DNA of 64,000 nucleotides from Balanoglossus misakiensis (Eukaryota; Animalia; Hemichordata). The translations under genes and the position numbers were made by a program. A model generated the notes under the pieces. The model did not search any database, was not told the DNA's origin, and saw nothing but the letters and a program-made list of their open reading frames with translations. Each line of letters starts with the position of its first letter. Position 1 is the stretch's first letter. The stretch is from positions 7,616,047 through 7,680,046 of the forward strand of contig CM082591.2 in NCBI GenBank assembly GCA_040954595.2, read 5' to 3'. Positions 1-42,843 of the stretch are shown piece by piece.

Positions 1-3000
1 CCATACCTCCTGGTTCTTTAAACTTTCGCCCTGGCTTTGGACTTTGGCCATCCAGTGTCCTCAATGACCAGTGACCTGTTAGGTGAAACAACGGTCAAAG
101 GTCAAACATGCTATATTGCAATGCATTAGGAATATGCTTGAGTTAGTGTTTTATTGTTCATTTTAACAAGAGAAAACATATTACAAAAGAAACGAATCAT
201 TGCTATGACAACTGAACTACTAAGGGGTAGTTTTTCTACACAATGTTTACAGTGACAAATAACCATGGCAACCAGAGTAACCATGACTTTCTTGAACTAT
301 TTCTTTTTCTCTGCAATATAGCTAGGAGGAAATTTACTTTGTCTCTTTTTGATATTATAATATACATAAAAGACTATCTTATTTAACCATTCAATAGATA
401 TACTATCGTTGATGTTGCCATGGTAACACATTCAAAGAAATCAGTTCAAAAATAATCTTTTACTTGTAACTTTTGACTCAGTAGACATTTCATAACAATT
501 CTTGAACTGAGTTTCAGGGATAATTCTTTGGTCCATTATTTTTAGGAAAAAATGTATGATGGTAGCATTATTGACTGGTAACCATGACAACTGAACCTCA
601 ATGTATTTTGTAAAACATTGGCAATGTGCTAAAGTTAGTGTTTTAATTTAACTTTAAACCTTTTTTTTTTACAAATTTAGCGAGTTATTGCCATGATATA
701 TTTCTGCCAAAGTACTCTATATGTACACATTTTCCAATACCAAGTAACCATGGAAACTGGACAAAATGTTAATATCAGTTAATAATTCTATTTTTGAAAA
801 CAAGTAGCAGAAATATTACCTGAAATTATCACTTTATTTATGGTCTTTGTAACCCATAAAAATGTTCCTATTCAACTGCTCAATGGATTTAGTGACAGTA
901 TTGTTGTCATGGTAACACATCTTAACAGATCAGTACAGGAATAATCTTTGCCTTGTAATTTTGGAATTAGTAGGTCTTACATAAAAATTCTTGAACAATG
1001 TCTCAAGGATCATTGCCTACCTTATACTTGTAGCTTTTCAAACCAGGGCAACAAGACAAACATCAATTTCTGAAACTATTTCTATTGCTTTGCAATATAA
1101 AGAAAAAAGCTATCTGTCATTTTATTGACAGACTATTATAATACAAAGTATTTCTAACTTTATATACTATCTGTAATGTTGTTGTGCCAAAGATTTTGTT
1201 TCTTTTTCCAGCCAACCAGAGATGGTCTGCTTTTCAATCAGTAATTGTCATATTGGTGAACAGAGAAGAATTATCTACTCCTTAGCCGAGAGGGCTGGTA
1301 CTTTCTTTGACCAGGTGAGTATTTTTGTGAATAAACCCTTGAGAAAATTATTGGTGTAAACCTTTCTAACTTTAAGTTTAAAGAATTTATTGGAAAGTAA
1401 AATGTATTGTTGGAAATTTAGTGATATATTTTTTTGCAAGAATATACCCTAACCACTTATATAGTGACATCATTGCAGATGATCTGAGAGATGGAAAACC
1501 TGCAGTTACTTAGGATGAGTCATGATAAATAGTCTGTCTCAACACCACTGGCTGTTCCAGATTGTCACTTGGATAAAAAATTGGTAAGTTCCTAATTTGA
1601 ATTGCCTTTTTTGATTATTTATAATCATAACAAAATTAAAGTTTCTTGATATTGTGGAATATCTACATATGACAATTCCAAAGTCAAATGAAGAAATTGA
1701 ATGATTGTAGCTAGTGGTTGAAATTGTAGAAATTGAGCATTTTCACCCTGGACCAGAGTTGTTTTATTTCTGGCCACTGTAACAAAGAGTGAACCTTTCA
1801 CCCCTTTCTGTTGCATATGGATTCAACCATACCAATCAAAACAGAGGGTTGAACCACTGTTCTGTTTTATATTGCTTTATGCTGTCTGTGTCTGCCAGTA
1901 ATCAGCCTACTTGTACATTGGACATTTACACACAAATTGGCTCATAGCTTTTCTTTTTTCTATTCTGGCACACCTTGATGCTCCATCAAATGCTCTTGCA
2001 GAATTGATCATAACAATCTCATCCACATGATATTGATATTGAGTCAATATCTGCACGCATTTTGATGTTTCTAATTTACAGACAAAAGTCTTCATCAATG
2101 ACCAGACAGCCAATCTATTCTTGCAAAGAATACAAAGTTGAATTCAAAGATGACAAGGTTGGTATCTTCTGACGTTACTTTGTTTATGTTTGATCAAGTG
2201 AAAAGTTTCTTATAATGATTTTGAACTCTCTGAATTGTTGGTGACCAGACCTCTATTCTCATCTTGCCTCATACTTGTAAAAATTTGCGTTGTGATGTCA
2301 AGGTTTCTGGTAAGTGCCATAAATGTTATGTCATCAAGTTTTCTTATATTATACATTTACACACAATGCAGTTTGGTGGTACCGGTAGAAGTCTGGCAAC
2401 CAATGATTCAACATTTACTTGAAGTTTTGAATCAACTGATCCCTTATTATCAACACATGTATTCAACTTATTTTCCAACACTGAGAATGCACATACCTGT
2501 TTTAGAAGGTTTTGCTGAAACACTGGCTCCCTTTGTATCCTCAGATATCTCTTTACTTCCTGTAGTGGAGAGATGTCTTAGACATTAATTTTACAATGTA
2601 CTTGAAGTTTTGAATCAACTGATCCCTTATTATCAACACATGTATTCAACTTATTTTCCAACACTGAGAATGCACATACCTGTTTTAGAAGGTTTTGCTG
2701 AAACATTGGCTCCCTTTGTTTCCTCAGATATTTCTTTACTTCCTGTAGTGGACAGATGACTTAGACATTAATTTTACTTGAAGTTTTGAATCAACTGATC
2801 CCTTGGTATCAACACATGTATTCAACTGTTATTTTCTAACACTGAGATGAAATGCACATACCTGTTTTAGAAGGTTTTGCTGAAACACTGGCTCCCTTTG
2901 TACCCTCAGATATCTCTTTACTTCCTGTAGTCCCTGAATCACCAGCAGTTTCTTTACTTCCACCAAAAGATCTCCTAATCTTGCTGATGACACCTTTGGA

Positions 3001-6000
3001 TTGCTTTTCTTCTGCAAAAGAAAGTGATCAAACAATGAAAATATAGTATAATAATAATAATAATTTATTTATATAGCGTCAGTATCCACAAAAAATGTGA
3101 TCAATGACGCTAAAAGCAAAAGTAACACTACAACAAATGGCTAAAAAGCAGATTTAAAAAGTAAAGTTTTAATATTTGATTTAAAAACAGATAAGTCTGG
3201 TGCCTGGAGAATGTTGAGTGGAAGATTATTCCAAAGAATTGGAGCAGCAACAGTAAAAGCATGATCACCATAACTCTTGGTGCGTGATCGAACAGGGCAG
3301 CTCAGTTTGAACTGATCAGCTGACCTTAAATTGCGACACGGAACATATAGTTTAGTCATGTTAGAAAGATAGATTGGACTAAGTGTATGAATGGATTTAA
3401 AAATGAGAACTAACATCTTAAAAACAATACGCTCTGTAACAGGTAGCCAGTGCAACTGATACAAAATTGGAGTGATGTGACAGGTGATTTTTGAACGAGT
3501 AACAATTCTAGCAGCAATATTCTGAACGCGTTGGATACGGTTGATTGAATACTTCGGGAGCCCAAATAAAAGTGAATTACATGAATCAATTCGAGAAGTA
3601 ATGAATGCATGAACTAATTGCTCTGTAGCAGATTGAGATAAATATTTGCGGATAATCGCAATGCGACGTAAATGAAAAGTGGCAGAGCGGCAGATCTGTC
3701 CAATATGTGGCTTCATTGTCAGACAAGAGTCAAGGATCACTCCAAGGCTCTTAGCCTGACAATGGACGGGAATCAGAGCATCGCCAACACGAATTTCTGA
3801 AATCCCTCTAACAGACAGATCACCCGAAGTACCAGAGAAATAACAAATTCAGTCTTATCATCGTTTAAGCACAAGAAGTTTTCAGACATCCAAAACCTAA
3901 CATCGGATATACAAAGTTCAAGATTCAAAACAGTTCTTGCTGCGTTGTCTTTACTAAAAGACATATAAAGTGAAGAGTCATCTGCATAAAAACTATAAAG
4001 ACAACCATGACTTTGAACTAATTCACCTAATGGAGACGTGTACATATTGAAAAGTATGGGACCAAGAACTGATCCCTGTGGTACCCCAGTGTCGAGTGGA
4101 TAGAAAGGTGATTGGGTGGAATTTACAAGTACACACTGACTACGATAGTGCTGTCAATTAATCTGATTACGTTTGGCTGATATTTAATAGAATGATTTCT
4201 TATTTCTTATGGGATATCTCATTTTCCTCTGTTAAGAATATACCGGGTACTGCTTTCCAACATCAGATTGAATCATTTGGCCAACATTGAATGTTTACTC
4301 ATCTCATTGGATATCTGTGACTGATTTTTCACTATCAAGAATACTAGTATACTATACCATGCTTTCCAACATCAGATTGATGTAAATGTAGTTCCAACTT
4401 TCTAAGTTTGTTATTGACATGTTTTACTGGTGTACCTTTTTCCTTTGTCTTAAATTGTTTTGCTTTGGTTTTCTCTGTCTCAGTTCCATCTCCTTCCGTC
4501 ATCTTGGCCACAGCCTCAGTGTCTTCTTTTCCCATTGTCTCTGGTTGTGGATGTCTGGCTTTCTCTGCTCCTGTTTCTTCTGATGCCATCTCAGGTTGCA
4601 CAGTTGCTGGTTTCACATCTTTTGTAGCCATGGTTACAGGCGATATGTCTCCTGTGTCATCTTTCTTGAGAGGCACATCAGATGGTGTGAGTTTGCCTAC
4701 AAATATTTGTAATTAAATGGTAAGTACTTGGTTATAATTCTTACAACAATGAAAACTTGCATTTTTTTATAATCTATATGAGCTGGAAGATTTTTCTTGA
4801 TGCAGGAATAATCGAAGCAGATTTATATCAATCTCACCTTGTTCAGTTTCCAATTTTGCATCTTCTTCCAGTTGAAGAGTTTTAGCAGTTTTCAGTTGCA
4901 GCTCAGTGTCAGATTGATCATCCTGGATTTTGGATAATTTTGACTTTAGCTCAGTTATGGTTTGTTCTTGTTGTTCAAGTTTAGATTGTAATTCTTGGAT
5001 GTGTCTAGGGTCTGATTCTCTCAATCTTTGCTTCAGGGAAATGACATCCATAAGTTGTGTGGCGGCTACTTTCTCAACACTTGCAAGTTTCAGTTTGTAC
5101 TGCTCTTCTAAGAGTGACTTTTCCTGAAGTGCTTCTTTCAACTGATTCTCTAGAATCATTTTCTCTGTCTGCAGTTTAGTGATTTCTCCAACTAGCTTTC
5201 TCTTATTCTCAACTGACTCAGTCTGCAGTTTAGTGATTTCTCCAACTAGCTTTCTCTTATTCTCAACTGACTCAGTCTGCAGTTTAGTGATTTCTCCAAC
5301 TAGCTTTCTCTTATTCTCAACTGACTCAGTCTGCAGTTTAGTGATTTCTCCAACTAGCTTTCTCTTATTCTCAACTGACTCGGTCTGAATTTTGGACTTC
5401 TCTGTCAGGGCCCCATCCAACTGTTGTTTTAGTTCTTTGAGCTGCTTTGCACTAGCTTCAAAGGGCAGTAAGCTTTTTGCTTGTAAGCTGATAGATTCAG
5501 CTGGTATGGGATGAATTGGTCTGCCATGTAGTGTGATTTCATCTGCCAAATCTGAAATGAAAAAGAATAAAGCTATGAAGCTCAATTTTGTCATTTCTCT
5601 GTTTGGAACTATTTCTAAGACATGTCATGTGTGTGTCAACACACTCCCAGCCTAATTCTTTGTTATGAACGTTGTTAGAGCCATTCGTTTGCTGGGAATT
5701 GCCTTGATACACAAAATCAGGTTTTTAGTCTTGGCACATCCGGCCCTTATCAGATCAAGCTGGTGATGCAGAAACAACAAATGGTGCATGTGTGTAGAAT
5801 ATTATTTTTACTGGACAACCCATAACCAGATATGACTACAACAAAAACATTCTTACGTTATCCCTGTGGTTAAAAAAAGTCAGGGCATTATATTAATCAA
5901 ATTTGTGTCGATTTGGATATAGCTTTCAACAAACTTTTTAAAGATTTCACCTGTCCCGATCTGGCATTTGTGACAGTCGGAAAGTTAACACAAACATCAA

Positions 6001-9000
6001 TTAAAATTTCTGAATTTTTATGACACCTTAAGTGCAGCATGCAAATGTAATGTATCATTATTCCTTTCAAAATTGTGGCCAATGTGATCCAACCAAAATA
6101 TCTGCTGTTGTTTTGTTTGATTATTATTCATATCTGGATCAGAGAAGTTAAAAGATTAACCATGCAATGTGGACTAAAATCCCATAAATGACCAGTTCTT
6201 GACCAAATTAAATCACTTACTTTGTTTCATGGCAGCCTCTTCAATGTCAGAATCTTTTTCTGTTTCCTCCCCTGGTGAAGTCAGGCGTGTTCTCTCAATC
6301 TAAAATTGAAACAAATGAATATATCAAATCCAAATCTAGATGAATTTCAATAGACAGTCATAGTGCAAATCAAATATTTGAGCCATGCAAGAGTTTATCC
6401 CAGTGATGTTGTTAAGAGTTCCCAGAAAGAAACAGCCAAACAATTACAATATCCTTCTCACAGCCATATCAGCTGGGCATCAATCAACATGTAAACGTCA
6501 CTGAAAATAGTAAAGACTTATTTACTATTTGGAAATTTCCCTGCGTGTGTGAAGTTGTGGACAAAGTATGCTGTTGAACATAGCTACATGTGTTGTAGGG
6601 ACATTAGCTGTAAAACTGGCTTCATTTTCGGTATTTTTGTTCTGTGTACCAAATTCAATTTCTTGTCCTACTACAAACAGCAAGGTACTCAGTACTCAGC
6701 TTGTCAAGATATCCTGTATGTGTGTAACAACCATTGTTATTATTGACAAATAAATTCTAGTCCGGACTTGAATTCAAATTTTGCATCATAACAGTGCTGA
6801 TACACATATATGTTGCATTGATAAGCTAAATGCTGGGCATTACAACTAACATCTAAGCATACCTGATTCAGTATTTCATCAACACTTCCCTCTTCTACGT
6901 TGTCACCATATAATTTCAATGGTCCTATTCCCCCACCATCTCCTGAAAGTTAGTAAAATATTCAATGGATTTTGATTTGCATAATTTTATTTCTCTGAAA
7001 GTTTCTTGGGGTTAAAAAAATTTGCAATGCATGAAACTTAAATTATCTTATATGAGTCACAGCTCTAACAAGTTTCATTTTATAGAAATGTAAAATAACA
7101 AACTTCTTAATCAAATCTTATTCTTAATCATAATCTTAATCTGTCACCTGTGTTAATTCAGTATTAAGTATAATTTTCTCCTTCCTCCAAGTGATCAATC
7201 CACACTCTCTTATTCTTTGAATTTGTATTGTTTCTTGGTTGAATCAATATATAGTTTTACGGCAAACCATCTCATCTGACAAGAAAAACTTACTGTTCAG
7301 AAAGAATAGTTCCAGTTCATCAAACCTGGCTTGGTCATATGTTGCTGTCAACTGTAGTGGTATTCCAGCTGTGTTGGCCTCTGTCATTTCATCTGTCATC
7401 AAGATTGGTTCTAATGCCTTGGCTAAACTTCTTGAATCTTCAAGACAGCTTCCCCGCAATCGGTAGAGATTATAAAGTCTACGCATGTTGGCTGTGATTT
7501 GCAGAGACCCTGATTTCATACTGGTTATTTCCACTTCACCCAAATTCTCAGTGCAGACTTTCTTGACTTTCTCAGTGTCATCACCATTGGATACCACATC
7601 AGATGCTCTTCTCTTCAACTGTTGTTTGCAGTTGTTCCAAGCTGTAGATGCTGCCTGTTGCCTTTCCTCATTCTGGCCCTCATTTTCTGCTCGATGTTGC
7701 TGATAGGCAGTTTCATCCAGTTGGGCATGAACTTGAATTGTTGTGTCGGCATGATGATCTGAAGATTTTAGGAAATGGGGCAATACTAAACTCAATCTAA
7801 GACAAAATAATGAGTACGCTTAATTTATCGCCACCCTGGAAAACCATAAGTCATACGGTTTTTGTTAAACTCCGTCTCCCAAGAAAAAAACTTAAATTTG
7901 TAGGGCTTCAAAAATATGTATTGTGGGAAAATCAACAATATATAACCTCACTTGCACTAAACTAAGTTGACTAGTACAGGTACTAAGCACAACAGTTAGA
8001 TTATACAATTACGCAGATGGCCATTGAAAAGTCAATGGGTCAAGGACCTTTACTTTAAGTCTAGGAACATTTTAATCTTGTCAACAGGCGCCACCAAGAA
8101 AGTTGTTTTTATTAATAATTTTGAAATTGTCTCCTACCTGCTGTATTTCTTGTGTCCTTGCCACATGGATCAACTCCTTCTTGTTCCCTCATTCGGTCTG
8201 GTGTCAATAAACTGGCAAATGTGGCATAACTCTTATCAACATCTTCACTCTCCATGAAAGCCTTCTTCAGCTCCTTAGCTTCTTCAAAAGCTAACCTGGT
8301 CTTCTTGACACTCCATATTATCTTCTCTGAAATCTTATCAGATGAGTGTGACACTACAAATTTGTCTGCGTGGTATGGAAAGTATTCCTTGACTAACTCC
8401 CCAAGCTGGGAATATTCATCAGGATAGGTTGGTAGTCCAACTGCTATAGATTCTAAACCGCTATACGGATAGTCCTTGTAGACAGAGACGGGAAGACAAC
8501 TGTGAGATTGTTGAAGTGATGTTGGCAGAGTGCTTGCTGAGTAACCTGAGTAGAGTGTAGGGGTGACATGACTACTCTTCATCTGGTCTTGAAGATGCTC
8601 CAGTTCAGCCTTACCTGCTTGTGGAGAAGCTCCTTGTATTGACCACTTAGGAGGTTTGTGGGAAACATCTTTCAGCTTTTTTGATGCACTTCCAATAGCA
8701 GCTGCCAGTGTCTCACACCTGTCCAAGGCTTCTTGTGTATCAATTTGGCCATACGTCAGTATGTTGTGTGTAGTGACTTTGTCTGGTATGGTTGGGTCTT
8801 TTCTGAAAAAGACTTCTGCAGGTCTGGGGAAAATCTCTGCATGAGGGATCTTGAAAAGTTGCTTTCCAGAATATTCTGCTCGGTATTGGTTTTCAAAGTG
8901 TGCGAACATGCTTGGACCAATTGAAAATATGAGGTCAGCTTCACTGGCCAGCTTTAGCATCATTTCACTAAACTTCCCTGGAGGTAGTTTCAACAGACAG

Positions 9001-10274
9001 TTGCCTTCTTCATAGGCATGGTTGATCATTACAAGTTTTGCATCAGGAAACAATTTTTTTCTGATATTTGCAGCAGCAAATCCAGTTCTTGGAGCATAAC
9101 CAACAACATATTTGATGTTTTGTAGCTGTCTGAGGTGAGGGTAGTAGATTTCATGATATTTCGTCAACCATTTTAAATGTGGCTGATCATCTTCTGGCTC
9201 TGCAGTTCTGTCTTCTTCTTGTTGTTGTGCTGGAATCAATTTAACCCGACACTTGGCAGCATCTGCCTTCTGGTCGTCACTGACTTTGACACCAACAAAT
9301 GTGGAGTAGGCGTTAACAGGTGTTTCTTCTTTGACTTTTCTTGCAGAGAAATCTTGTACAAGAGTTCTGTGAAACCCAGTCAAGCCACAATCTTCTTTGT
9401 TCCAGTCGTCATACACAAATAATACGCCAGGAGGTGGATCTGGAAGATGGAGTTGATGAAGTTTGGCTTCAGGGAAGAGACTTTCGTGGATTGCTTTGGC
9501 TGCATTCTGTGTCTTTGGAGAATATCCGACTACATGTTGGATGTTTGTCAGTTCCTTCAGTCCAGGGAAGTATGTATCATGGTGAACAAGCCAGTTTATT
9601 ACAGGGGGGTCTTCATGAGGATCCAATCTCTTGTCTCTTACAGCTGGGATCAAAGTAGCACCAACACTCTCTGCATCTTTCTTTTGTTCTTCACTCACTT
9701 CAACTTCAAGGGTAGTACAGTTGAATTCAGAAACTTCATCTGGCTTCAGTTTTTCTTCTCGAAATTCAGTGACAAGTTTGTTAGTTGGTGTTGTTGTCTG
9801 ATCTTCTGATTCTGTCTGCCAGGTTTGCATGACCATTAATGCTGCCACAGGTGGTGGGTCAGGAAGACTGAGTTGGTAAAGTTTGGCTTCAGGGAAGAGA
9901 CTTTCATGAATTGCTTTGGCTGCAGTGTGTGTCTGTGGAGAATATCCGACTACATGTTGGATGTTTTGCAGCCCCTTCAAGTCTGGGAAGTATGTACCAT
10001 GGTGAACAAGCCAGTGTACTCCAGGGGGGTCTTCATGAGGATCCATCCTCTCGTCTCTTATAGCTGGGATCAAAGTAGCATCAACACTCTCTGCATCTTT
10101 CTCTTGTTCTTCACTAACTTCAACTTCAAGGGTAGTACACAGGAATTCAGAAACATTCTCAGACTGGAGTGTGTTTTCTTTGAGATGTTTGATTATAGCT
10201 TGAGTTGGTTGGGAGGTTTTTGCCTCCTTGTCCCATGATTTCAATACAACCAGTGCTGCAGATGGTTCTGACAT
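1..10274 (-). CDS. Paralogue A (3' end runs off the window): GT half-domain repeats + GT4-like glycosyltransferase + TRADD-N-like + coiled coil + NHL protein. Predicted exons 10274-8138, 7758-7294, 6942-6863, 6299-6221, 5551-4838, 4696-4436, 3011-2862, 2742-2680, 2559-2497, 75-<1
   Basis: Every predicted intron has GT..AG ends and compatible phases (1,1,0,1,1,1,1,1,1). Exons coincide with ORFs 8112-10274, 7244-7795, 4767-5594 and 4344-4676. Near-identical to copy B. The last exon starts GHWSLRTLDG, as the NHL exon of copy B does. Confidence 0.85.
2405..2935. repeat. Three ~180-bp tandem units, each ending in the same exon 3' end and donor (two units in copy B, about 34920-35265)
   Basis: Recurring gaagttttgaatcaactgatccc...cacatacctgttttagaaggttttgctgaaac...cttcctgtag. 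Confidence 0.9.
3048..4145 (-). mobile_element. 5'-truncated L2/CR1-group LINE fragment in an intron of copy A
   Basis: GVPQGSVLGP at about 4060-4090, YADD motif, C-terminal HITPILYQLHWLPV...APILWNNLP, and a (TAT)n tail at about 3050. Confidence 0.9.
5166..5387 (-). repeat. Four perfect 54-bp coding repeats (TESVENKRKLVGEITKLQ) in the coiled-coil exon; single unit in copy B
   Basis: Visible in the DNA and in ORF 4767-5594 (275 aa) versus ORF 37096-37761 (221 aa). Confidence 0.95.
8138..10274 (-). CDS. Large exon of copy A: two ~140-aa repeats followed by a GT-B (GT4-like) domain
   Basis: 720-aa ORF with the repeated core TTLEVEVSEEQxKDAESVxATLIPA...HVVGYSP, which is homologous to the core domain's STFVGVKVSDDQKADAAKCRVKLIPA...YVVGYAP. 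C-terminal SGLESIAVGLP. Confidence 0.85.
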
Positions 10275-10424
10275 AATTACATTCCTGCTGGGAAGAAGTA
10301 TACCAGTATACAGTACGGTATAATACTGCTGTACCGGTAGGTGATGGTGAAATTTGTTTCAGGGAAAACTTGACAGTATGTAATTAGTATTGTGACATAT
10401 TCATGACTATCTATACTGAGTAGT

Positions 10425-10470
10425 GATTGGCTAACCAAAATGAATATGCATAAGATGGCATATATAAGGG
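10425..10470 (+). promoter_or_regulatory. Putative Pol II promoter in repeat A (reverse CCAAT 'gattgg' and TATA 'tatataag')
   Basis: Motifs are conserved in A1 and in A2 (about 27199-27242). Confidence 0.4.
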
Positions 10471-11333
10471 GTCTACCCAGGGTACCATGTGTGCCTTATC
10501 ACAGCGTAGTGGGACAGACAGCTGAAAGTATCACAACCTCGCTCGTCATCACAACCTTACTATATGGCTACGAAGCAACCTACAACGACAAAAGTCGTTA
10601 CGGTGCTGCAGACACGTATTATCACTACCTCCACGGTGACAAGAATGTCAACGATTAGAGTGGCCACGCCCTCAGTAACTTTACCCATAGTGACAGTTTC
10701 AACGTCAGGTGCCACGACAATGTCGGCTGGAGCGTCAACTACAATGGCCAGTACTGAACAGAGAGCAAATGCGGTAAGTCTCATTTGTATACCCTCTAAT
10801 GTACCCTGATATTTCGGTATTACACAAGCTGCTTGGTAGTCTCTGATATCTTCATTGAGACTTGCGGAATGCAAGACATCACGTCGGTAGTGATATTAGT
10901 TCGTCCCCATGTAGAATGATAAGGTATGGGTTTGACGAGAGTTGATGTGCTGACAGGCACGGAGAAGTTGGGTAGACGATAATAATGTAATAAGATACAT
11001 GAGGTTCGTCCCCTGAAGCACATGGTACGTAGAGAAAAGAGGGTAGACGATATGTAGTTCGTCCCCGGGTTTATGTGCGACATAAGAAGTTTTGGTTGAC
11101 GAAAGTAGAGTTCGTCCCCATGTTAACTGACTCGAGAAGAGAAGAGACGAGAGAGGAAGAAAGGAAAGAAATTACATGAAAGAAAAAAGCTGACGTGGCA
11201 TGGGAAATGTGCCCAATTTGAATATTTGAAATACAGATGAGTACATGGTAATGAGATAGTATGATGTAATGAACGAAATCAACAGGTGGTTTGGTGACCG
11301 TAGCAATTCCACCAGTACGTATACAATGGTGAC

Positions 11334-11815: not shown

Positions 11816-12368
11816 CGATGGATAGGATAGAACGAGGAGAAGTTACAGAGATAGAGACAGAAAATAGAAAATGAGTTATGCGAAGTGAAGGCGACGTACA
11901 GGTTGAAATCTGAACTTGCACTTTGTTCCATTCTTCACTGTAAATGATTCAATATACCGCTGATCAAATGTTTTCTAAGCATGAATAGTCTCCTGTTTAT
12001 TGTACGAATGTGCACGTTGGATAGATGCATTATATTTGGTAAAGCTAAGAAACAAGGATTTTGTGAAACGTATCCAGGAAAGGCGTGACTGGGGGAAGGA
12101 CCCTCATTCTAATTACATTCCTTCCTGTTAACCAGGCGGGGTTTTCACCCTATGCCATGTAGGTTAATAAGAGCTGAATCCCATCCCAGAATTTGATACT
12201 GGATAAAGATCAACCCTAGTGAAATGTTCTGTCCCGTTGTAGGTATACACCCCTGACATTCCAGAATGGGAGAAGGTGATACACCTGGACCCGAATGCCG
12301 CCTATCTTGAACACCTGTCAAGGGAAGTTAAATATGTTGCTTAGAACGGTTCTGCAGCGCCCTCATCG

Positions 12369-14419
12369 GTGATACCCCATCCGAAACACGTATTAGATAA
12401 CGGACTGCGAGTATCGGTTAAACAGCTAAGATTTCGAGACCCAGATTATTTTCTAGCCGGAGGGGTTCATACACAGAAAGAAAAATGGTTTGGTATACTT
12501 AAAGATCAAGATAACGAGAGACAAGTGGGGAGGTGGATAGAGAATGGCGTATCAGTTTTTGACTTCATCAAACCCTTTAGTGGCGAAATATGTGGTGTTG
12601 AATATGATTGTAGCTTTCCTCCAAGTAAATACCTCCCTAACAATCTGAATTGTCGTGGATATAAGGATTTTATTTCATCTACGATACTGGATAGAAACAA
12701 ATCCGGGGCCCTGGAAATTTGGGGCAGAGTTGGCAAGGTACCACCACCCTATATTGTAATGCCGCTAACGATCGAACCGACAAAACCCCGACTCTGTCAC
12801 GATCAGAAATATTTAAATAATTGGATCAAAGACATGCCTTTCAAATTGGAACTGGTCACTTATCTGCCTAGGTATATGGGGAAAAATCACTACCAGACAA
12901 AAATACATGACAAGAGTGGTTATGACCATGTTTTCCAAGTAGAGCCCTAATGGGGATACAGTGGGGTGGATTTTGGTACGTACCAACGACCCTCCCATTC
13001 GGCTGGAAATGTTCGCCATACATATACCAAACAATAGGCTTACCTGCAATGAATGAAGTTCGGAGATGTGGTGTACCGTCTAATCTTGATATCGATGATA
13101 GACATGCAGGGCAACTGGTAATGAATCACGGTATGAGTGACTTCGAGAAAGCAGAGGCTGCCTGTTTCATAATGTGTTATGTTATGATAGAGTTGGGCTA
13201 CACACTTGGGCTAAGTAAATGTATTCTCCAACCAACGCAAATTTTAGAGTATCTAGGTTTTGGTGTGGACACTCAGAGGATGGTTTTTACGATACCAGAA
13301 CCAAAAAAGCACAAGTTTGGAAAGCTTAGAGAATCTCTACTTAAAAGAAAGAGTGTCAGTGTTACCACCCTTCAACGTTTTCTGGGAAAATGTGTTTCAT
13401 TCACCTTGGCGGTACCAGTAGCAAGATTATTTGTGAGAAGGGTTGCCAAAGCCATAGCTACAGCACATAGCAGTAGCTCACAGATACCACTAACCGGGGC
13501 CCTACGTAAAGAGATAGCAGATTGGAGGAGAATTGATACCGGCAAGGATTGGGCGCGATGGAGAACGGAGAAACACGTAGAAATCTCGCTAGTAAGTGAT
13601 GCCTCACTGGGAGGATGGGGCGGTATTGTACGTACATCGGGAAGGGAAACAGTTGGCGACTATTGGCCCCATGGGTTGAGAAAAAAATCTATCGCATATA
13701 AGGTAGTCATAGCACTTAAAAATGTTCTTAGTGCCCATAGAGATATAGTTAGTAACACTAGGGTTAAGGCACAGGTGGATAATAAAGTTGCAGTGCACGG
13801 CTGGAAGAATATGGGCACACGAAATATGGAGGTTAATGATGCATTGTACCAACTGTACGAGATGGTGGATGACCTAAACATCATACTTGACATTGACTAT
13901 ATTGCATCGGCTGACAACCCTGCTGACGGTCCATCACGTAGACTGTCAGCGATGGATGCTCACCTCCTCCCGATATATTGGGATCGAGTAGAAAATGAAT
14001 TTGGTGATCATACAGTAGATTTAATGGCCCTTGACTCCAATGTACAGAAAAATAGGGACGGGCGCCCCTTAAAACATTACACACCATGGAGGACTCCCAA
14101 CTCATCAGGTGTTGATGTATTCGCACAAAGCCTACAAAGGGAAAATTGTTATGCATTCCCACCATTTAACATGATTGGCCCCATACTTAAATTTCTACAG
14201 GACGAACGAGCGTTGGTGTCCATGATCGTACCACAACTGTCGCCATGTTTATATTCGTGGCCTATAGTAGAAAATCAGGCTCTAAGGATGATCAAAATAG
14301 CACGTGCAGGAGATAAAGTCTGGGAGGTTCCCACAAAAATGGGCTATTGGGAACCAGTGCCAGCCCTGTACGATGTCTGGCTGTGCCGTATCCATTTCGG
14401 CTTGCAACAATACGGCTGA
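12369..14419 (+). pseudogene. Reverse transcriptase / RNase H / DNA adenine methyltransferase-like ORF of the PAT-like element (frameshift near 12950)
   Basis: TLPFGWKCSP; DIDD at the YxDD position; RNase H motifs SDASLGGWG, VDNK and NPADGPSR; MT-like HTVDLMA...NCYAFPPF. Confidence 0.9.
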
Positions 14420-14744
14420 ATGTGGAATACAAATAATATTTTAATGAAAGTACAGGAACGCATCTCATTAAAACGAGATATAACGAAATTATGAAGATGA
14501 AGTGGGAAATGTTACAGGGACAGGGTTTAGAATATTAAATAACCAATGTATGACGACACAGTGTGATCATTGGTGTATAATTGTAGACAAATTTGTAGAA
14601 ATAGCATGAGTTGTGACAATGTACCAAATGTTCAAAGCGGCTACCACATGCGGTCCGAAAGATAGTGTTTGTTAAATAATAAAGTTGTATTACCAATAGT
14701 ACTCATTGTCTTGTTTTCATGATAATTTGTTAACAGAGGGACAT

Positions 14745-15921
14745 GCTGATGGTAGGTACCCCACGACTATGGTTACCGGCAGAGCAATTTAGGGAATGCC
14801 ACTACCCAAATGATGTTAACTTTAACTTCTGCCAGCAATAATGTGGAACAAGACGTCTTGCTGACGTCTGTGAGGCAGAGCGCCCTCAGCCTTCACCAGT
14901 TGATATTGAAGCCCTCGATACGAGAATAGCAGAACTTCAAGGTAAACTTCAAGCGACGCCATATACACAACGAAAGTCTAAACTTCAATCCGAGTTCGTG
15001 GTATTCCTTTGAAGTATTGAACCCCCAAAGACGATTACCTCAGCTACACCGAAAGATGTGCTTAGATTCCTCGTATGGAAAGATAAGAGCGGTCGTACTG
15101 TAGTACATGATGGACCCTGCTCACGTTCAGACCCATGCCTGTGTCCGAACCGACTCGCCTTCAAAACAGTGGATTCATATATCGGCCAACTGAGATCAAT
15201 CTTTGAAAAGGAGGGTAGAAGAGGTGAATGGAATGCTAGGTTTGGTTTTGGAAACCCAGCTGCTGATAAGACAGTTAAACAATACTTAAAGATAGTGACG
15301 GAGGAACAAATGAAACAGAATGTAATACCAAAGCAGGCAATTCCTATAACAACAGAAACAGTTGAGAATATAGTTAAGTATATCAACTCGCAACTAGAAA
15401 GGTTTCCAGATATCGACCCATGCCATGCATATATATTGGCAAGAGACAGGGCTTTGTTTCTTACATTGCTATTCACAGGGAGCAGAGCAGGAGATTTGCT
15501 AATTGTTAACACAGATAACATAATAAATCTTCCTAATAGCGGGCTCCTTATCAATCATGTATGGGGTAAAACTCTACGAGATGGTAAAACGAGACCTTGT
15601 GCGATATTTACGAATGAAAATACTTTAATATGCCCTGTTACAGCACTGACTGAGTATGTTGAAATGACACAATCACTTTAGTATCAGTCTCAACCCAGGT
15701 TTTCTCTTTCGTTCAACTACTAGAGATGAGAAAATAGAAAATATTTCTTTGTCAACCAATGCCGCCAATTCTAGGTTGAGATTTTACTGTGGAAAGATAG
15801 GAATGTACCAGGGGGAGACTGTACACAGTTTCCGTAGTGCCTGTGTCATCGCGTTGGCCATGTTAGGATCATCAGTACCAGAGATAATGCAACATGTAGG
15901 GTGGTCGCAGGAGTCCACTGC
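14745..15921 (+). pseudogene. Tyrosine recombinase of the PAT-like element, 5' part (stops/frameshift; cut by an insertion)
   Basis: N-terminal Cys motif CHYPND..FCQ, then GSRAGDL, WGKTLR, HSFR and HVGW. Confidence 0.9.
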
Positions 15922-16007
15922 TATGGGGTGAGAACACCGCCAAAAATAGCTTATGTCTTTATTTGGTAGTTTTCTCATCATTATTATGTTATTATGTCAT
16001 TATTTGG

Positions 16008-16608: not shown

Positions 16609-16918
16609 TGACCTGCTTTATTATTTGAACTCTTGCTCGGTACCCAGAATTCATTGCACAAAATGGCGACGGTATGAAAGTTTCGCAGGCCGTGGCCGAC
16701 GACAGTCTTGTAAACAGCACGCGTGGGTAAACAGTCAGGCCTCGAACTTAACGCCGGCCCACCGGCCCCGGGCCGGTAAATATTTATAGTGGGCCGGTTA
16801 TTTTCACATCTTGTCGGCCCAATTGGGCCGGTGAATATACACAAATAAATCAGTAAAACATACTGCAGAATCAATATTCTATTGTAAAAGTTATTTAGAA
16901 AGAAAGATTTCAAGAAAA

Positions 16919-26580: not shown

Positions 26581-26660
26581 ATAATAACATAATAATGATG
26601 AGAAAACTACCAAATAAAGACATAAGCTATTTTTGGCGGTGTTCTCACCCCATACACTGC

Positions 26661-31769: not shown

Positions 31770-32587
31770 TTATGTCTGCTTGTAGAATACTTTGATTTGG
31801 TGGCTGTTCAACTCTCCAACAGCAATTCTGTCACCGCTGACTGCAAGGAACCAAGGGCTACTCACCTCCCCTTCAAATAAGTGACAGATCCACTCTCCAT
31901 CAAATCTCCATTTCACAATCCTATGATTCAACAAATCACACACAAACAAATTATCGTCGTCATCGACGTCAATGCTGCGTGGCCACAACAGCTGACCAGG
32001 ACCTGAACCATACACACCAAATTGATACAAGAATTTCAATTCAGCATCAAAACACTTGATGCAATGATTGTCACCGTCAGACACCATGATGACATTCTTA
32101 CTGTTGACCACCACAAAGAATGGCCTATTGAATTGTGTTTGGCCAACACCTTGACCACCAACCTCTGCAACATACTGACCATCTTGGGTGTACTTGAGTA
32201 GCCGATGACCTTCGACCTCAGTGACCAAAACAAATCCATTCAGTAGAGCGATGCCCCTGACATCGACGCCTGCAGGTAGAATAATTATTCTAAGAATTTT
32301 ATTGTTTTGATCACAAACAACAATTTGAGAGTTTCCACCATCACTTATGAAGTAGATGTTGTCATGGGAGACAGCTACATCCCGTGGCTGGAATGGCTTT
32401 GCAAACTGACCATCAAAACTTCCCAAGACTTTGTCACAGGTGTAATCTTGATTCAGTATCTGTACAACCCTGTTGCCTCGGCCACACACCACCAGTTTGT
32501 CACCATGGAACACCATACCTCTTGGGTTTTTAAACTTTCGCCCTGGCTTTGGACTTTGGCCATCCAGTGTCCTCAATGACCAGTGAC
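31770..32587 (-). CDS. Terminal exon encoding a six-bladed NHL-repeat beta-propeller (TRIM2/3/71-type NHL)
   Basis: Repeats FKNPRGM, FQPRDVAV, DVRGIAL, FNRPFFVVV, LLWPRSIDV and VSSPWFLAV, with D-x-x-N-H-x-I motifs and G-x-G-x-G-Q turns. Confidence 0.9.
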
Positions 32588-35500: not shown

Positions 35501-38500
35501 TAACATTTGATTTAAAAACAGATAAGTCTGGTGCCTGGCAAATGTTGAGTGGAAGATTATTCCAAAGAATTGGAGCAGCAACAGTAAAAGCACGATCACC
35601 ATAACTCTTGGTGCGTGATCGAACAGGGCAGAGTTTGAACTGATCAGCTGACCTTAAATTGCGACACGGAACATATAGTTTAGTCATGTTCGAAAGATAG
35701 ATTGGACCAAGTTTATGAATGGATTTAAAAATGAGAACTAACATCTTAAAAACAATACGCTGTGTAACAGGTGGCCAGTGCAACTGATACAAAATTGGAG
35801 TGAGTAATGTGACAGGTGATTTTTGAACGAGTAACAATTGTAGCAGCAATATTCTGAACACGTTGAATACGGTTGGTTGAATACTTCGGGAGCCCAAATA
35901 AAAGTGAATTCGAGAAGTAATGAATGCATGAACTAATTGCTCTGTAGCAGATTGAGATAAATATTTGCGAATAAGCGCAATGCGACGTAAATGAAAAGTG
36001 GCAGAGCGGCAGATCTGTCCAATATGTGGCTTCATTGTCAGACAAGAGTCAATGATCACTCCAAGGCTCTTAGCCTGACAATGGACGGGAATCAGAGCAT
36101 CGCCAACACGAATTTCTGAAATCCCTCTAACAGACAGATCACCCGAAGTACCAGAGAAAATAACAAATTCAGTCTTATCATCGTTTAAGCACAAGAAGTT
36201 TTCAGACATCCAAAACCTAACATCGGATATACAAAGTTCAAGATTCGAAACAGTTCTTGCTGCGTTGTCTTCACTAAAAGACATATAAAGTGAAGAGTCA
36301 TCTGCATAAAAACTATAAAGACAACCATGACTTTGAACTAATTCACCTAATGGAGACGTGTACATATTGAAAAGTATGGGACCAAGAACTGATCCCTGTG
36401 GTACCCCAGTGTCGAGTGGATAGAAAGGTGATTGGGTGGAATTTACAAGTACACACTGACTACGATAGTGCTGTCAATTAATCTGATTACGTTTGGCTGG
36501 TAATGGAATGATTTCTTATTTCTTATGGGATATCTCATTTTCCTATGTCAAGAATCTACCGGGTACTGCTTTCCGACATCAGATTGAATCATTTGGCCAA
36601 CATTGAATGTTTACTCATCTCATTGGATAGACTGTGACTGATTTTTCGCTATCAAGAATACTAGTATACTATACCATGCTTTCCAACATCAGATTGATGT
36701 AAATGTAGTTCCAACTTTCTAAGTTTGTTATTGACATGTTTTACTGGTGTACCTTTTTCCTTTGTCTTAAATTGTTTTGCTTTGGTTTTCTCAGTCTCAG
36801 TTCCATCTCTTTCCGTCATCTTGGCCAAAGCCTCAGTGTCGTCTTTTCCCATTGTCTCTGGTTGTGGATGTCTGGCTTTCTCTGCTCCTGTTTCTTCTGA
36901 TGCCATCTCAGGTAGCATTGATGTTGGTTTCACAGGCTCATCTTCATCTTTTGTAGCCATGGTTACAGGTGATATGTCTCCTGTGTCATCTTTCTTGAGG
37001 GGCACATCAGATGGTGTGAGTTTGCCTACAAATATTTGAAATTAAATGGTAAGTACTTGGTTATAATTCTTACAACAATGAAAACTTGCATTTTTTTATA
37101 ATCTATATGAGCTGGAAGATTTTTCTTGATGCAGGAATAATCGAAGCAGATTTATATCAATCTCACCTTGTTCAGTTTCCAATTTTGCATCTTCTTCCAG
37201 TTGAAGAGTTTTAGCAGTTTTCAGTTGCAGCTCAGTGTCAGATTGATCATCCTGGATTTTGGATAATTTTGACTTTAGCTCAGTTATGGTTTGTTCTTGT
37301 TGTTCAAGTTTAGATTCCAACTCTTGGACGTGTCTAGGGTCTAATTCTCTCAATCTTTGCTTCAGGGAAATGACATCCATAAGTTGTGTGGCGGCTACTT
37401 TCTCAACACTTGCAAGTTTCTGTTTGTACTGCTCTTCTAAGAAGGACTTTTCCTGAAGTGCTTCTTTCAACTGATTCTCTAGAATCATTTTCTCTGTCTG
37501 CAGTTTAGTGATTTCTCCAACTAGCTTTCTCTTATTCTCAACTGACTCGGTCTGAATTTTGGACTTCTCTGTCAGGGCCCCATCCAACTGTTTTTGCAGT
37601 TCTTTGAGATGCTTTGCACTAGCTTCAAAGGGTAGTAAGCTTTTTGCTTGTAAGCTGATAGATTCAGCTGGTATGGGATGAATTGGTCTGCCATGTAGTG
37701 TGATTTCATCTGCCAAATCTGAAATGAAAAAGAATAAAGCTATGAAGCTCAATTTTGTCATTTTTCTGTTTCGAACTATTTCTAAGACATGTCATGTGTG
37801 TGTCAACACACTCCCAGCCTAATTCTTTGTTATAAACATTGTTAGAGCCATTAGTTTGCTGGGAATTGCCTTGATACACAAAATCAGGTTTTAAGTCTTG
37901 GCACATTCGGCCCTTATCAGATCAAGCTGGTGATGCAGAAACAACAAATGGTGCACAGTGTAGAATATTATTTCTACTGGACAACCCATAACCAGATATG
38001 ACTACAACAAAAACATTCTTACGTCATCCCTGTGGTTAAAAAAAAAGTCAGGGCATTATATTAATCAAAATTGTGTCGATTTGGATACTTTCAACAAACT
38101 TTTTAAAGATTTCACTTGTCCCGATCTGGCATTTGTGACAGTCGGAAAGTTAACACAAACATCAATTAAAATTTCTGAATTTTTATGACACCTTAAGTGC
38201 AGCATGCAAATGTAATGTATCATTATTCCTTTCAAAATTGAGGCCAATGTGTTCCAACCAAAATATCTGCTGTTGTTTTGTTTGATTATTATTCATATCT
38301 GGATCAGAGAAGTTATAACCATGCAATGTGGACTAAAATCCCATAAATTACCAGTTCTTGACCAAATTAAATCACTAACTTTGTTTCATGGCAGCCTCTT
38401 CAATGTCAGAATCTTTTTCTGTTTCCTCCCCTGGTGAAGTCAGGCGTGTTCTCTCAATCTAAAATTGAAACAAATGAATATATCAAATCCAAATCTAGAT

Positions 38501-41500
38501 GAATTTCAATAGACAGTCATAGTGCAAATCAAATATTTGAGCCATGCAAGAGTTTATCCCAGTGATGTTGTTAAGAGTTCCCAGAGAGAAACAGCCAAAC
38601 AATTACAATAGCCTTCTCACAGCCATATCAGCTAGGCATCAATCAACATGTAAACGTCACTGAAAATAGTAAAGACTTATTTACTATTTGGAAATTTCCC
38701 TGCGTGTGTGAAGTTGTGGACAAAGTATGCTGTTGAACATAGCTACATGTGTTGTAGGGACATTAGCTGTAAAACTGGCTTCATTTTCAGTATTTTTGTT
38801 CTGTGTACCAATTGCAATTTCTTGACCTACTACAAACAGCAAGGTACTCAGTACTCAACTTGTCAAGATATCCTGTATGTGTGTAACAACCATTGTTATT
38901 GTTGACAAATAAATTCTAGTCCGGACTTGAATTCAAATTTTGCATCATAACACATATATGTTGCATTGATAAGCTAAATGCTGGGCATTACAACTAACAT
39001 CTAAGCATACCTGATTCAGTATTTCATCAACACTTCCCTCTTCTACGCTGTCACCATATAATTTCAATGGTCCTATTCCCCCACCATCTCCTGAAAGTTA
39101 GTAAAATATTCAATGGATTTTGATTTGCATAATGTTATTTCTCTGAAAGTTTCTTGGGGTTAAAACAATTTGCAATGCATGAAACTTAAATTATCTTATA
39201 TGAGTCACAGCTCTAACAAGTTTCATTTTATAGAAATGTAAAATAACAAACTTCTTAATCAAATCTTAATCATAATCTTAATCTGTCACCTGTTTTAGTT
39301 CAGTATTAAGTATAATTTTCTCCTTCCTCCAAGTGATCAATCCACACTCTCTTATTCTTTGAATTTGTATTGTTTCTTGGTTGAATCAATATAGTTTTAT
39401 GGCAAACTATCTCATCTGACAAGAAAAACTTACTGTTCAGAAAGAATAGTTCCAGTCCATCAAACCTGGCTTGGTCATATGTAGCTATCAACTGTAGTGG
39501 AATTCCAGCTGTGTTGGCCTCTGTCATTTCATCTGTCATCAAGATTGGTTCTAATGCCTTGGCTAAACTTCTTGATTCTTCAAGACAGCTTCCTCGCAAT
39601 CTGTAGAGATTATAAAGTCTACGCATGTTGACTGTGATTAGCAGAGACTCTGATCTGATATTGGTTATTTCCACTTCACCCAAATTCTCAGTGCAGACTT
39701 TCTTGACTTTCTCAGTGTCATCACTGTTGGATACCACATCAGATGCTCTTCTCTTCAACTGTTGTTTGCAGTTGTTCCAAGCTGTAGATGCTGCCTGTTG
39801 CCTTTCCTCATTCTGGCCCTCATTTTCTGCTCGATGTTGCTGATAGGCAGTTTCATCCAGTTGGGCATGAACTTGAATTGTTGTGTCGGCATGATGATCT
39901 GAAGATTATAGGAATTGGGGCAATATTAAACTCAATCTAAGACAAAATAATGAGTACGCTTAATTTATCGCCACCCTGGAAAACCATAAGTCATACGGTT
40001 TTTGTTAAACTCCGTCTCCCAAGAAAAAACCTTAAATTTGTAGGGCTTCAAAAATATGTATTGTGGGAAAATCAACAATATATAACCTCACTTGCTCTAA
40101 ACTATAGTTGACACTTATACTGGTAGTACAGGTACTAAGCACAACAGTTAGATTATGCAATTACGCAGATGGCCATTGAAAAGTCAATGGGTCAATGTCC
40201 TTTACTTTAAGTCTAGGAACAATTGAACCTTGTCAACAGTCGCCACCAAGAAAGTTGTTTTTATTAATAATTTTGAAATTGTCTCCTACCTGCTGTATTT
40301 CTTGTGTCCTTGCCACATGGATCAACTCCTTCTTGTTCCCTCATTCGGTCTGGTGTCAACAAACTGGCAAATGTGGCATAACTCTTATCAACATCTTCAC
40401 TCTCCATGAAAGCCTTCTTCAGCTCCTTAGCTTCTTCAAAAGCTATCCTGGTCTTCTTGACACTCCATATTATCTTCTCTGAAATCTTATCAGATGAGTG
40501 TGACACTACAAATTTGTCTGCGTGGTATGGAAAGTATTCCTTGACTAACTCCCCAAGCTGGGAATATTCATCAGGATAGGTTGGTAGTCCAACTGCTATA
40601 GATTCTAAACCGCTATACGGATAGTCCTTGTAGACAGAGACAGGAAGACAACTGTGAGATTGTTGAAGTGATGTTGGCAGTGTGCTTGCTGAGTAACCTG
40701 AGTAGAGTGTAGGGGTGACATGACTACTCTTCATCTGGTCTTGAAGATGCTCCAGTTCAGCCTCACCTGCTTGTGGAGAAGCTCCTTGTATTGACCACTT
40801 AGGAGGTTTGTGGGAAACATCTTTTAGCTTATTGGTTGCGCTTCCAATAGCAGCTGCCAGTGTCTCACACCTGTCCAAGGCTTCTTGTGTATCAATTTGG
40901 CCATATGTCAGTATGTTGTGTGTAGTGACTTTGTCTGGTATGGTTGGGTCTTTTCTGAAAAAGACTTCTGCAGGTCTGGGGAAAATCTCTGCATGAGGGA
41001 TCTTGAAAAGTTGCTTTCCAGAAAATTCTGCTCGGTATTGGTTTTCAAAGTGTGCGAACATGCTTGGACCAATTGAAAATATGAGGTCAGCTTCACTGGC
41101 CAGCTTCAGCATCATTTCACTAAACTTCCCTTTTGGTTGTTTGAACAAACAGTTGCGTTCTTCATAGGCATGGTTGATCATCACTAGTTCTGCATCAGGA
41201 AACAATTTTTTTCTGATATTTGCAGCAGCAAATCCAGTCCTCGGAGCATAACCAACAACATATTTGATGTTTTGTAGCTGTCTGAGGTGATGGTAGTAGA
41301 TTTCATGATATTTCGTCAACCATTTTAAATGTGGCTGATCTTCTTCTGGCTCTGCATTTCTGTCTTCTTCTTGTTGTGCTGGAATCAATTTAACCCGACA
41401 CTTGGCAGCATCTGCCTTCTGGTCGTCACTGACTTTGACACCAACAAATGTGGAGTAGGCGTTAACAGGTGTTTCTTCTTTGACTTTTCTTGCACAGAAA

Positions 41501-42843
41501 TCTTGTACGAGAGTTCTGTGAAACCCAGTCAAGCCACAATCTTCTTTGTTCCAGTCGTCATACACAAATAATACTCCAGGAGGTGGATCTGGAAGATGGA
41601 GTTGATGAAGTTTGGCTTCAGAGAAGAGACTTTCATGAATTGCTTTGGCTGCATTCTGTGTCTTTGGAGAATATCCGACTACATGTTGGATGTTTGTCAG
41701 TTCCTTCAGTCCAGGGAAGTATGTATCATGGTGAACAAGCCAGTGTACTCCAGGGGGGTCTTCATGAGGATCCATCCTCTCGTCTCTTACAGCTGGGATC
41801 AAAGTAGCATCAACACTCTCTGCATCTTTCTTTTGTTCTTCACTCACTTCAACTTCAAGGGTAGTACAGTGGAATTTAGAAACTTCATCTGGCTTCAGTT
41901 TTTCTTCTCGAAATTCAGTGACAAGTTTGTTAGTTGGTGTTGTTGTCTGATCTTCTGATTCTGTCTGCCAGGTTTGCATGACCATTAATGCTGCCACAGG
42001 TGGTGGATTGGGAAGTTGGAGTTGGTGAAGTTTGGCTTCAGGGAAGAGACTTTCTTGAATTGCTTTGGCTGCAGTGTGTGTCTGTGGAGAATATCCGACT
42101 ACATGTTGGATGTTTTTCAGTTCTTTCAGCTTTGGGAAGTGGATACTGTGGCTGGCAAACCAGTGTACTCCAGGGGGGTCTTCAGAAGGATTCAACCTCT
42201 CGTCTCTTATAGCTGGGATCAAAGTAACATCAACACTCTCTGCATCTTTCTCTTGTTCTTCACTAACTTCAACTTCAAGTGTAGTACAGTACGATTGAGA
42301 AACTTTCTCTGACTTCAGGGTTTCTTCTCGAACTTTTGTGACAAGCTGATGAGTTGGTGTTGTTGTCTGATCTTCTGATTCTGTCTGCCAGGTTTGCATG
42401 ACCATTAATGCTGCCACAGGTGGTGGATTGGGAAGTTGGAGTTGATGAAGTTTGGCTTCAGGGAAGAGACTTTCTTGAATTACTTTGGCTGCTTTGTGTG
42501 TCTGTGGAGAATATCCGACTACATGTTGGATGTTTTTCAGTTCTTTCAGTCTAGGGAAGTATGTATCATGGTGAACAAGCCAGTGTACTCCAGGGGGGTC
42601 TTCATGAGGATCCAATCTCTTGTCTCTTACAGCTGGGATCAAAGTAGCATCAACACTCTCTGCATCTTTCTCTTGTTCTTCACTAACTTCAACTTCAAGG
42701 GTAGTGCAGAGGAATTCAGAAATGTTCTCAGACTGGAGTGTGTTTTCTTGGAGATGTTTGATTATAGCTTGAGTTGGTTGGGAGGTCTTTGCCTCCTTGT
42801 CCCATGATTTCAATACAACCAGTGCTGCAGATGGTTCTGACAT
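31770..42843 (-). CDS. Paralogue B, complete, about 1677 aa: 3 GT half-domain repeats + GT4-like domain + TRADD-N-like + coiled coil + NHL beta-propeller. Predicted exons 42843-40290, 39898-39434, 39090-39011, 38458-38380, 37718-37167, 37025-36753, 35343-35194, 35074-35012, 32587-31770
   Basis: Exon lengths 2554+465+80+79+552+273+150+63+818 = 5034 nt form one open frame with GT-AG splice sites. Motifs include ADLIFSIGP and SGLESIAVGLP (GT-B), SESLLITVN (TRADD-N-like) and F-x-x-P-x-[GD] NHL blades. Confidence 0.85.
35378..36465 (-). mobile_element. Same L2/CR1-group LINE fragment in copy B
   Basis: Same insertion site with different frameshifts/indels, so it inserted before the duplication. 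Confidence 0.9.
40290..42843 (-). CDS. Large exon of copy B: three 420-bp (140-aa) repeats followed by a GT-B (GT4-like) domain
   Basis: 859-aa ORF. Antisense shadow ORFs start at 41596, 42016 and 42436, exactly 420 bp apart. Confidence 0.85.

Follow-up and report, generated by a model that had tools for sequence, protein, structure and literature searches.

Two minus-strand genes of the hemichordate Balanoglossus misakiensis, designated A and B, encode a 140-residue unit that is repeated in front of a glycosyltransferase (GT) core of the GT4 type. The preferred reading, with a probability of about one half, is that these units are duplicated, putatively self-folding fragments comprising strands b1 to b5 of the GT N-lobe, which form putative non-catalytic binding surfaces on the likely pseudo-enzyme head of a predicted immune protein. 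The GT4-conflict proteins, to which the cores belong, make up one of the largest immune-type expansions of marine invertebrates that still await an explanation, and they have been assumed to be glycosylating effectors. The locus represents a clade in which the standard donor site has been lost and to which a repeated sub-lobe piece, predicted to fold alone, has been added.

Gene layout in the window

The window is the whole stretch of 64,000 nucleotides that was analyzed. This animal DNA has introns and transposons and contains a tandem duplication, with positions 1 to 10,302 and 32,513 to 42,871 being about 96% identical. Each duplicate carries a minus-strand gene with a long exon for the units and the GT core, followed by exons that encode the TRADD-N-like domain, the coiled coil, and the NHL propeller (Table 1). 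The splice sites of both genes were read from the sequence alone, and in gene A, a GT donor following 8138 would terminate the exon with the units and the core. The predicted order in the protein is units, GT4, TRADD-N-like domain, coiled coil, and NHL, and the product would be an intracellular immune protein, a role predicted from the domain context following PMC8195603. Genes A and B may be paralogues or uncollapsed haplotypes; the number of units differs under either assumption.

Table 1 Positions of genes A and B and of their parts in the window
Feature	Position	Strand	Remarks
Gene A ORF	8112-10274	minus	2 in-frame units before the GT core
Unit A1	9849..10268	-	Position-1 head type; 140 aa, strands b1 to b5 of the GT4 N-lobe
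Unit A2	9429..9848	-	Position-2 head type; 97% identical to B3
Gene A GT4-conflict core	8138..9428	-	Complete GT-B fold (model)
Gene A exon 2, TRADD-N-like (DEDD2 type)	7294..7758	-	Predicted from splice sites and iterated profile
Gene A coiled-coil exon	4860..5551	-	Ends approximate; contains the 54-nt repeat
Gene A NHL exon, start part	1..75	-	Continues beyond the window; matches the start of the gene B NHL exon
Gene B ORF	40264-42843	minus	3 in-frame units before the GT core
Unit B1	42418..42837	-	Position-1 head type
Unit B2	41998..42417	-	Additional copy: position-2 head, position-1-like tail, 26 private changes
Unit B3	41578..41997	-	Position-2 head type
Gene B GT4-conflict core	40290..41577	-	97.6% identical to the gene A core
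Gene B TRADD-N-like exon	39434..39898	-	3' end set by analogy with gene A
Gene B coiled-coil exon	37190..37720	-	Ends approximate
Gene B NHL beta-propeller exon	31770..32587	-	PF01436, E = 9e-20

The iterated profile of exon 2 reached residues 332 to 451 of XP_019640446.1 (E = 1.9e-20), a protein annotated with TRADDN-DEDD2 in file 4 of PMC8195603. Pfam gave no match to TRADD-N in exon 2, and the protein atlas returned nothing usable for this exon. The X1 and X2 contigs, from one sample of one study that may itself be the source of the window, cover both genes with many short variants; one of the contigs listed bridges the unit-core junction of gene A, and none listed spans the whole unit array. 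The coiled-coil exons differ in the number of an 18-residue (54-nt) repeat, with about two more copies in A (5109-5432) than in B (37438-37599).

Upstream of gene A, positions 10407-10522 are repeated at 27181-27296 with 94% identity, a weak similarity to the upstream DNA of gene B picks up again at 27409-27651, and the X1 and X2 contigs part from the window sequence at 10408. The 5' region of gene A probably contains a 16.8-kb insertion or duplication. Retroelement ORFs at 12345-15681 encode a reverse transcriptase (weak Pfam match) and an ALOG domain that precedes a likely tyrosine recombinase; the element is presumably DIRS-like. A long inverted pair of 31/43-nt satellite units (15922-16919 and 25228-26654, 99% complementary) flanks a 1.33-kb tandem array (18600-24040), inside which are subrepeats of 216 to 239 nt. 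Remnants of LINE-type reverse transcriptases are located in the last intron of genes A and B and near the right end of the window, and an LTR-type pol remnant at 45.8 to 49.7 kb; the spans of these remnants are 3141-3848, 35472-36473, 45811-49684, and 59948-61620.

The units and the core

All five units are exactly 420 nt (140 residues) long, in frame, and intact, with a unit-to-unit DNA identity of 76 to 97%. An initial annotation of the locus had counted two extra copies in A and three in B and had assigned them to the start of the GT core, and both statements held. The three units compared are 34 to 38% identical to core residues 1 to 136 (BLASTP E values of 4e-23 to 3e-25), and Pfam finds three PF20706 stretches in A and four in B. 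All the nearest named proteins to the unit region are from Ptychodera flava (39 to 49%). An assembly artefact as the origin of the units was rejected, since they differ by 3 to 24% and recur in P. flava proteins. A penicillin-amidase identity, which came from protein atlas clusters with low recognition (1866), was rejected because the homology to the core is far stronger.

The extent of the unit needs to be considered separately from its origin. A unit comprises strands b1 to b5, 140 of the approximately 200 residues of the N-lobe (about 70%), so that the N-terminal half-domain of the initial annotation was correct with respect to the lobe concerned but too large. The seven strands of a complete N-lobe, with b6-b7 and the cleft loops, are not found in the unit, which stops where the catalytic His of the core would sit; this His is absent. 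The core-typical residues His302, Arg312, Gly398, Asn418, and His419 are replaced in the units, with the core-specific His302, Asn418, and His419 missing from nearly all of them. The units have a conserved set of their own instead, a Cys in b2 (33/33) and a His each in b4 and b5. A unit without b6-b7, without the Asn-His of b5, and without the cleft-facing residues of the b1 loop therefore probably does not possess a core-type acceptor pocket, and the claim that the substrate-recognition lobe had been multiplied was overstated.

In an AlphaFold model of the GT exon of gene A (29 sequences, pLDDT 83.4, pTM 0.68), each unit forms five strands, its helices correspond to those of core residues 283 to 418, and the N-lobe of the core extends from b1 at 283 through b6 and b7 at 478-481. 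A single unit modeled separately (40 sequences, pLDDT 87.7, pTM 0.83) also has five strands and is predicted to fold on its own. This model could be aligned to residues −1 to 138 of MshA (Z 6.4) and 1 to 126 of HepE (Z 6.6), as units align with the first 125 to 150 residues of GT-B enzymes. The GT rows of the fold search (Z 6.3 to 7.3) were tied with the unrelated Rossmann-like folds ETF, CARF, USP, and RCK, and Foldseek with the unit gave no match at E ≤ 0.001. Structure prediction of a single unit, which the initial annotation had proposed, thus yielded a folded domain resembling GT-B enzymes without setting it apart from other Rossmann-like folds, and assignment of the unit as a GT N-lobe fragment rests on sequence homology and not on fold specificity. 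A short Pro-rich linker separates each unit from the next module. The prediction of a complex between unit A2 and the core, with no alignment used and an uncertain partner fold, scored 0.00 and does not count for or against an interaction.

The number of units in relatives, a survey also suggested by the initial annotation, was determined in several searches. The first two returned 27 P. flava proteins, 25 with one unit and 2 with two, and a sole Saccoglossus match without a unit; both had been queried with the unit region and were therefore biased toward unit-bearing proteins. With a profile, 1.84 billion representatives were searched and 162 matches at E ≤ 0.001 obtained, the best 150 of which were taken. 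In a scan of 168 proteins, the matches listed included 144 near-complete cores, at least 36 of them with a unit directly in front. These 36 were the two genes of the window and 34 P. flava proteins, 32 with one unit and 2 with two; three units occurred among the matches listed only in gene B. No unit was present in front of the named Glandiceps cores (5 looked up) and those of several P. flava relatives; five unit-less records were uninformative, with the N-terminus cut off. The tandem copies examined in Branchiostoma were whole GT4 domains, but the sensitivity of the profile is low for coral and amphioxus N-lobes, so that partial repeats there may be missed. The unit is neither recent nor confined to this locus: a P. 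flava subfamily has one copy fixed throughout, and two copies exist there, too.

Other arrangements were observed outside this group. In another GT4-conflict clade, P0073 and P0079 contain a whole extra N-lobe of about 200 residues before a complete GT, and their relatives P0066 and P0102 contain two whole GTs each. This clade, which is also without canonical GT4 motifs, is likely an independent route to an extra N-lobe plus a GT. In P0056 from Glandiceps talaboti, the same type of degenerate GT4 and TRADD-N-like head is joined to a protein resembling PARP14, which has RRM, KH, Macro, WWE, and PARP domains.

The core of gene A (residues 280 to 695) was modeled as a GT-B fold with two Rossmann lobes and could be superimposed on BshA and MshA over about 360 residues (Z 29.7 and 29.6, rmsd 3.6 to 3.9). 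A PDB sequence search with the core gave nothing meaningful, and a family profile search gave NHL proteins and glycogen synthase, weakly. The His at the end of b5 and the Gly-Gly loop have functional roles in GT4 enzymes. An Arg and a Lys bind the donor pyrophosphate in these enzymes, which also possess an EX7E motif (PMC8760489, PMC3898925), with one Glu of EX7E being expendable in some GT4s (PMC8760489).

The motifs were counted in the cores among the matches listed. The Arg site is Gln in 31 and Arg in 0 of the 36 unit-bearing cores, compared to Arg in 45/45 cores of a canonical clade, and the first Glu is present in 3/36 versus 45/45 cores, which reflects that the canonical clade was selected on this Arg and the first Glu. 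The Gly-Gly pair was found in 0/36 versus 41/45. The unit-bearing cores kept the second Glu (36/36; Glu608) and the b5 His (34/36; His419), and 35/36 had an Asp or Glu one position after the site of the first Glu (Asp601 in A). In gene A, His419 and Glu608 are retained, but the Arg site is Gln510, the first Glu site is Lys600, and Gly-Gly is Cys-Gly. An Arg519 is close to the Lys site in A and B and is variable in relatives. The A and B cores consequently have neither the donor-pyrophosphate Arg/Lys pair nor the EX7E motif of a catalytic GT4, whereas two other unit-bearing cores, P0032 and P0040, kept a basic residue plus Glu. In the surrounding 56-row clade (FastTree support 100), the 20 unit-less cores, including those from Saccoglossus and Glandiceps, never combined Arg with the first Glu, and 4 of these 20 had a basic residue with an acid. 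The onset of motif erosion thus predates the unit. The Arg/Lys and EPFG motifs are also missing from at least three more GT4-conflict clades (21, 8, and 5 rows), and degenerate GT4 domains may therefore be common in this family.

Judged from these residues, the core is predicted, at slightly better than even odds, to be a non-catalytic pseudo-enzyme. Retention of the second Glu, the His, and the neighboring acid, together with the dispensability of one Glu in some GT4s, would be compatible with altered catalysis or plain nucleotide binding. The conserved His419, Glu608, and Asp601, the complete GT-B fold, the dN/dS of the core (0.26), and the binding of the acceptor by the N-lobe in GT4s (PMC3898925) would agree with an active glycosyltransferase with an altered donor site, to which the units recruit or present the acceptor by avidity. 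Such an enzyme is unlikely, as A and B have lost the Arg, the first Glu, and the Gly-Gly pair, and the units are without b6-b7 and the cleft-facing residues.

Origin and exchange of the units

A tree was calculated from 33 units and 29 core fragments; P0030, with a split core, was excluded. The units and cores formed the two sides of one branch (support 98/89), and a unit was 38% identical to its own core and 40% to other cores. A single old origin of the units follows from this one group and from a unit being no closer to its own core. The first 40 residues of a unit (“head”) and the last 100 codons (“tail”) had different histories. The heads of A1 and B1 clustered with unit 1 of the P. flava proteins P0003 and P0004 (89/92), but the tails of all five units of the window formed one clade (99/99). 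The tail data rejected the position-1 grouping (AU p = 1.7e-7). The head data did not reject a clade of window units only (AU p = 0.30), which makes the proposed age of the second unit probable rather than proven.

The A1 head is 61% identical to that of unit 1 of P0004 and 34% to that of A2. In the same unit pairs, dS was 0.05 to 0.24 in the tails versus about 1.2 between head types, and this contrast is hard to account for other than by conversion. Homogenization of the last 100 codons among the window units, with the first 40 retaining their position identity, is thus statistically supported. In B2, 53/56 diagnostic sites up to nt 103 were of the position-2 type and 9/11 thereafter of the position-1 type (permutation p = 5e-5), a chimera of head 2 and tail 1 as expected from unequal crossover between tails. 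The mosaicism between paralogues and its explanation by unequal crossover or conversion, both proposed in the initial annotation, could therefore be substantiated by the tail clade and the B2 switch; the generic incompatibility tests on the tails, with 20 informative sites, were weak (PHI-like p = 0.047, neighbor similarity p = 0.22). The peptides from which the mosaicism had been deduced, IRDERMDPHED in A1 and VRDKRLDPHED in B1 and A2, were correct, and VRDERMDPHED in B3 completes the reciprocal pattern. This A1-B3/B1-A2 pairing comprises just three sites, all within 7 nt (chance 0.001). Compared to B1, A1 contains two private divergent tracts (9/30 nt and 8/30 nt; background, 2.4%), and the private changes of B2 are clustered in patches, which suggests donors outside the window. 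Copy number probably varies by unequal crossover, and duplication, crossover, and conversion are ordinary mechanisms.

The following series of events can be proposed. The motif counts on the tree show that the acorn-worm GT4 clade lost the canonical donor-binding set before the units arose. A single duplication of the initial 140 codons of the GT exon would then have taken place, in a lineage shared with P. flava as the tree indicates, and the second unit is probably older than the split from P. flava, in agreement with the clustering of the heads. Unequal crossover between homologous tails would have generated the third unit of B, and conversion would continue to even out the tails around position-specific heads; both of these last events have statistical support. 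The locus clearly illustrates how conversion can homogenize part of a repeat while another part is spared.

Selection, putative function, and comparison with known systems

In 24 one-unit P. flava proteins (276 pairs), identity was 60% for the units, 63% for b1 to b5 of the core, and 51% for the remaining core. This similar conservation of the units and the corresponding part of the core indicates purifying selection on the units, which are not hypervariable. The head is the most variable part of the unit, with 51% identity of unit heads versus 58% of core heads. The dN/dS values of the window tails, from few sites, were 0.42 to 0.86 versus 0.26 for the core, as would be expected of surplus copies under relaxed selection. 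Positive selection was not indicated, with none of the pairwise dN/dS values exceeding 1. It is very unlikely that the units serve as decoys or baits to which pathogen inhibitors of the GT4 N-lobe bind and which diversified in an arms race. The predicted function of the family in anti-invader conflict (PMC8195603), the patches in B2, the tracts in A1, and the greater variability of unit heads would agree with baits, but the units are 33 to 40% identical to the core to be mimicked, with no conversion toward it, and conversion from unseen paralogues can account for the patches.

Alternatively, one unit might cap the core structurally or regulate it, for instance, as a stand-in for the neighboring N-lobe of a GT4 oligomer, with the second and third copies being near-neutral products of crossover. 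This possibility is doubtful but should be considered, as 32 of the 34 unit-bearing P. flava cores among the matches listed carry exactly one unit, tail dN/dS in the window exceeds that of the core, Pro-rich linkers separate the modules, and the full-length model reached a pTM of 0.68. Nevertheless, both species retain two distinct head types, the heads escape a conversion that extends to the very end of the tails, and all five units are intact at an identical length.

The loss of donor residues from the core and the core-like conservation of the units argue against simply more acceptor binding for an enzyme. Since the units are conserved and not hypervariable, they are read as folded domains that provide binding or scaffolding to a sensor-type head rather than as extra acceptor pockets. 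The GT module would bind a nucleotide or a molecule of the host or invader in place of sugar turnover, the units would provide an adjoining surface for protein contacts, the specificity of which would be determined by the head (b1-loop-a1), and TRADD-N plus the coiled coil would relay the signal. An extension of this binding-surface reading, speculative and rather improbable as a whole, is that an acorn-worm immune GT4 became a non-catalytic sensor and, in ptychoderids, a receptor array of variable length made from a sub-domain fragment of its fold, with a constant 100-residue scaffold homogenized by conversion, position-specific 40-residue recognition heads, and reshuffling between paralogues through recombination. 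If true, a deuterostome would have reached germ-line receptor diversity by a new route. The core, one unit, and head swaps are constructs for asking whether an enzyme or a sensor is present.

For this known family, neither a sub-lobe repeat of variable number nor a degenerate active site was found described before. GT4 plus TRADD-N proteins of cnidarians, amphioxus, and hemichordates, with GT4+GT4 architectures, are listed in PMC8195603 (Kaur et al. 2021), which treats GT4 as a catalytic effector. Ptychodera is absent from its supplementary files as searched by keyword, its passages as searched mention neither partial lobes nor a loss of motifs, and some of its GT4+GT4 entries could hide partial copies. 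Searches of the literature outside subscription papers gave no description of partial N-lobe repeats or motif loss in the acorn-worm GT4 clade.

The A and B cores agree with the GT4-conflict profile PF20706 (131.9 and 151.6 bits, respectively; cut-off, 26) over profile positions 1 to 374 of 385, and the family shows a lineage-specific expansion in a hemichordate here as well. With their TRADD-N-like and NHL fusion, as read from the splicing in the sequence, both genes resemble metazoan proteins composed of GT4, TRADD-N (DEDD2 clade), and a variable C-terminal domain; the order GT4, TRADD-N, and beta-propeller is that of XP_019644604.1 (PMC8195603, file 4). Unlike the tandem copies examined in Branchiostoma, which are whole GT4 domains, they carry partial N-lobes in front (one to three in the clade), and unlike the GT4s of PMC8195603, the unit-bearing cores have lost the canonical Arg/Lys, EPFG..E, and Gly-Gly. 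With the retaining GT-B enzymes of CAZy GT4 (BshA, MshA, PimA, and WaaG), the cores share the two-Rossmann fold over about 360 residues (Z 24 to 30), the b5 His, and the second Glu of EX7E, but they are 9 to 13% identical to these enzymes, have no pyrophosphate-binding Arg and a displaced first Glu, and are combined with extra N-lobe fragments and fusions to an immune adaptor and a propeller. The closest counterparts are P0003 and P0004 of P. flava, with two units and a core each, position-matched head types, and sister cores (local support 99); P0004 possesses the full architecture including NHL. In contrast to the window units (tails 73 to 91%), the units of P0003 and P0004 are 52 to 58% identical in the tail, without recent homogenization, and neither protein contains three units as gene B does.
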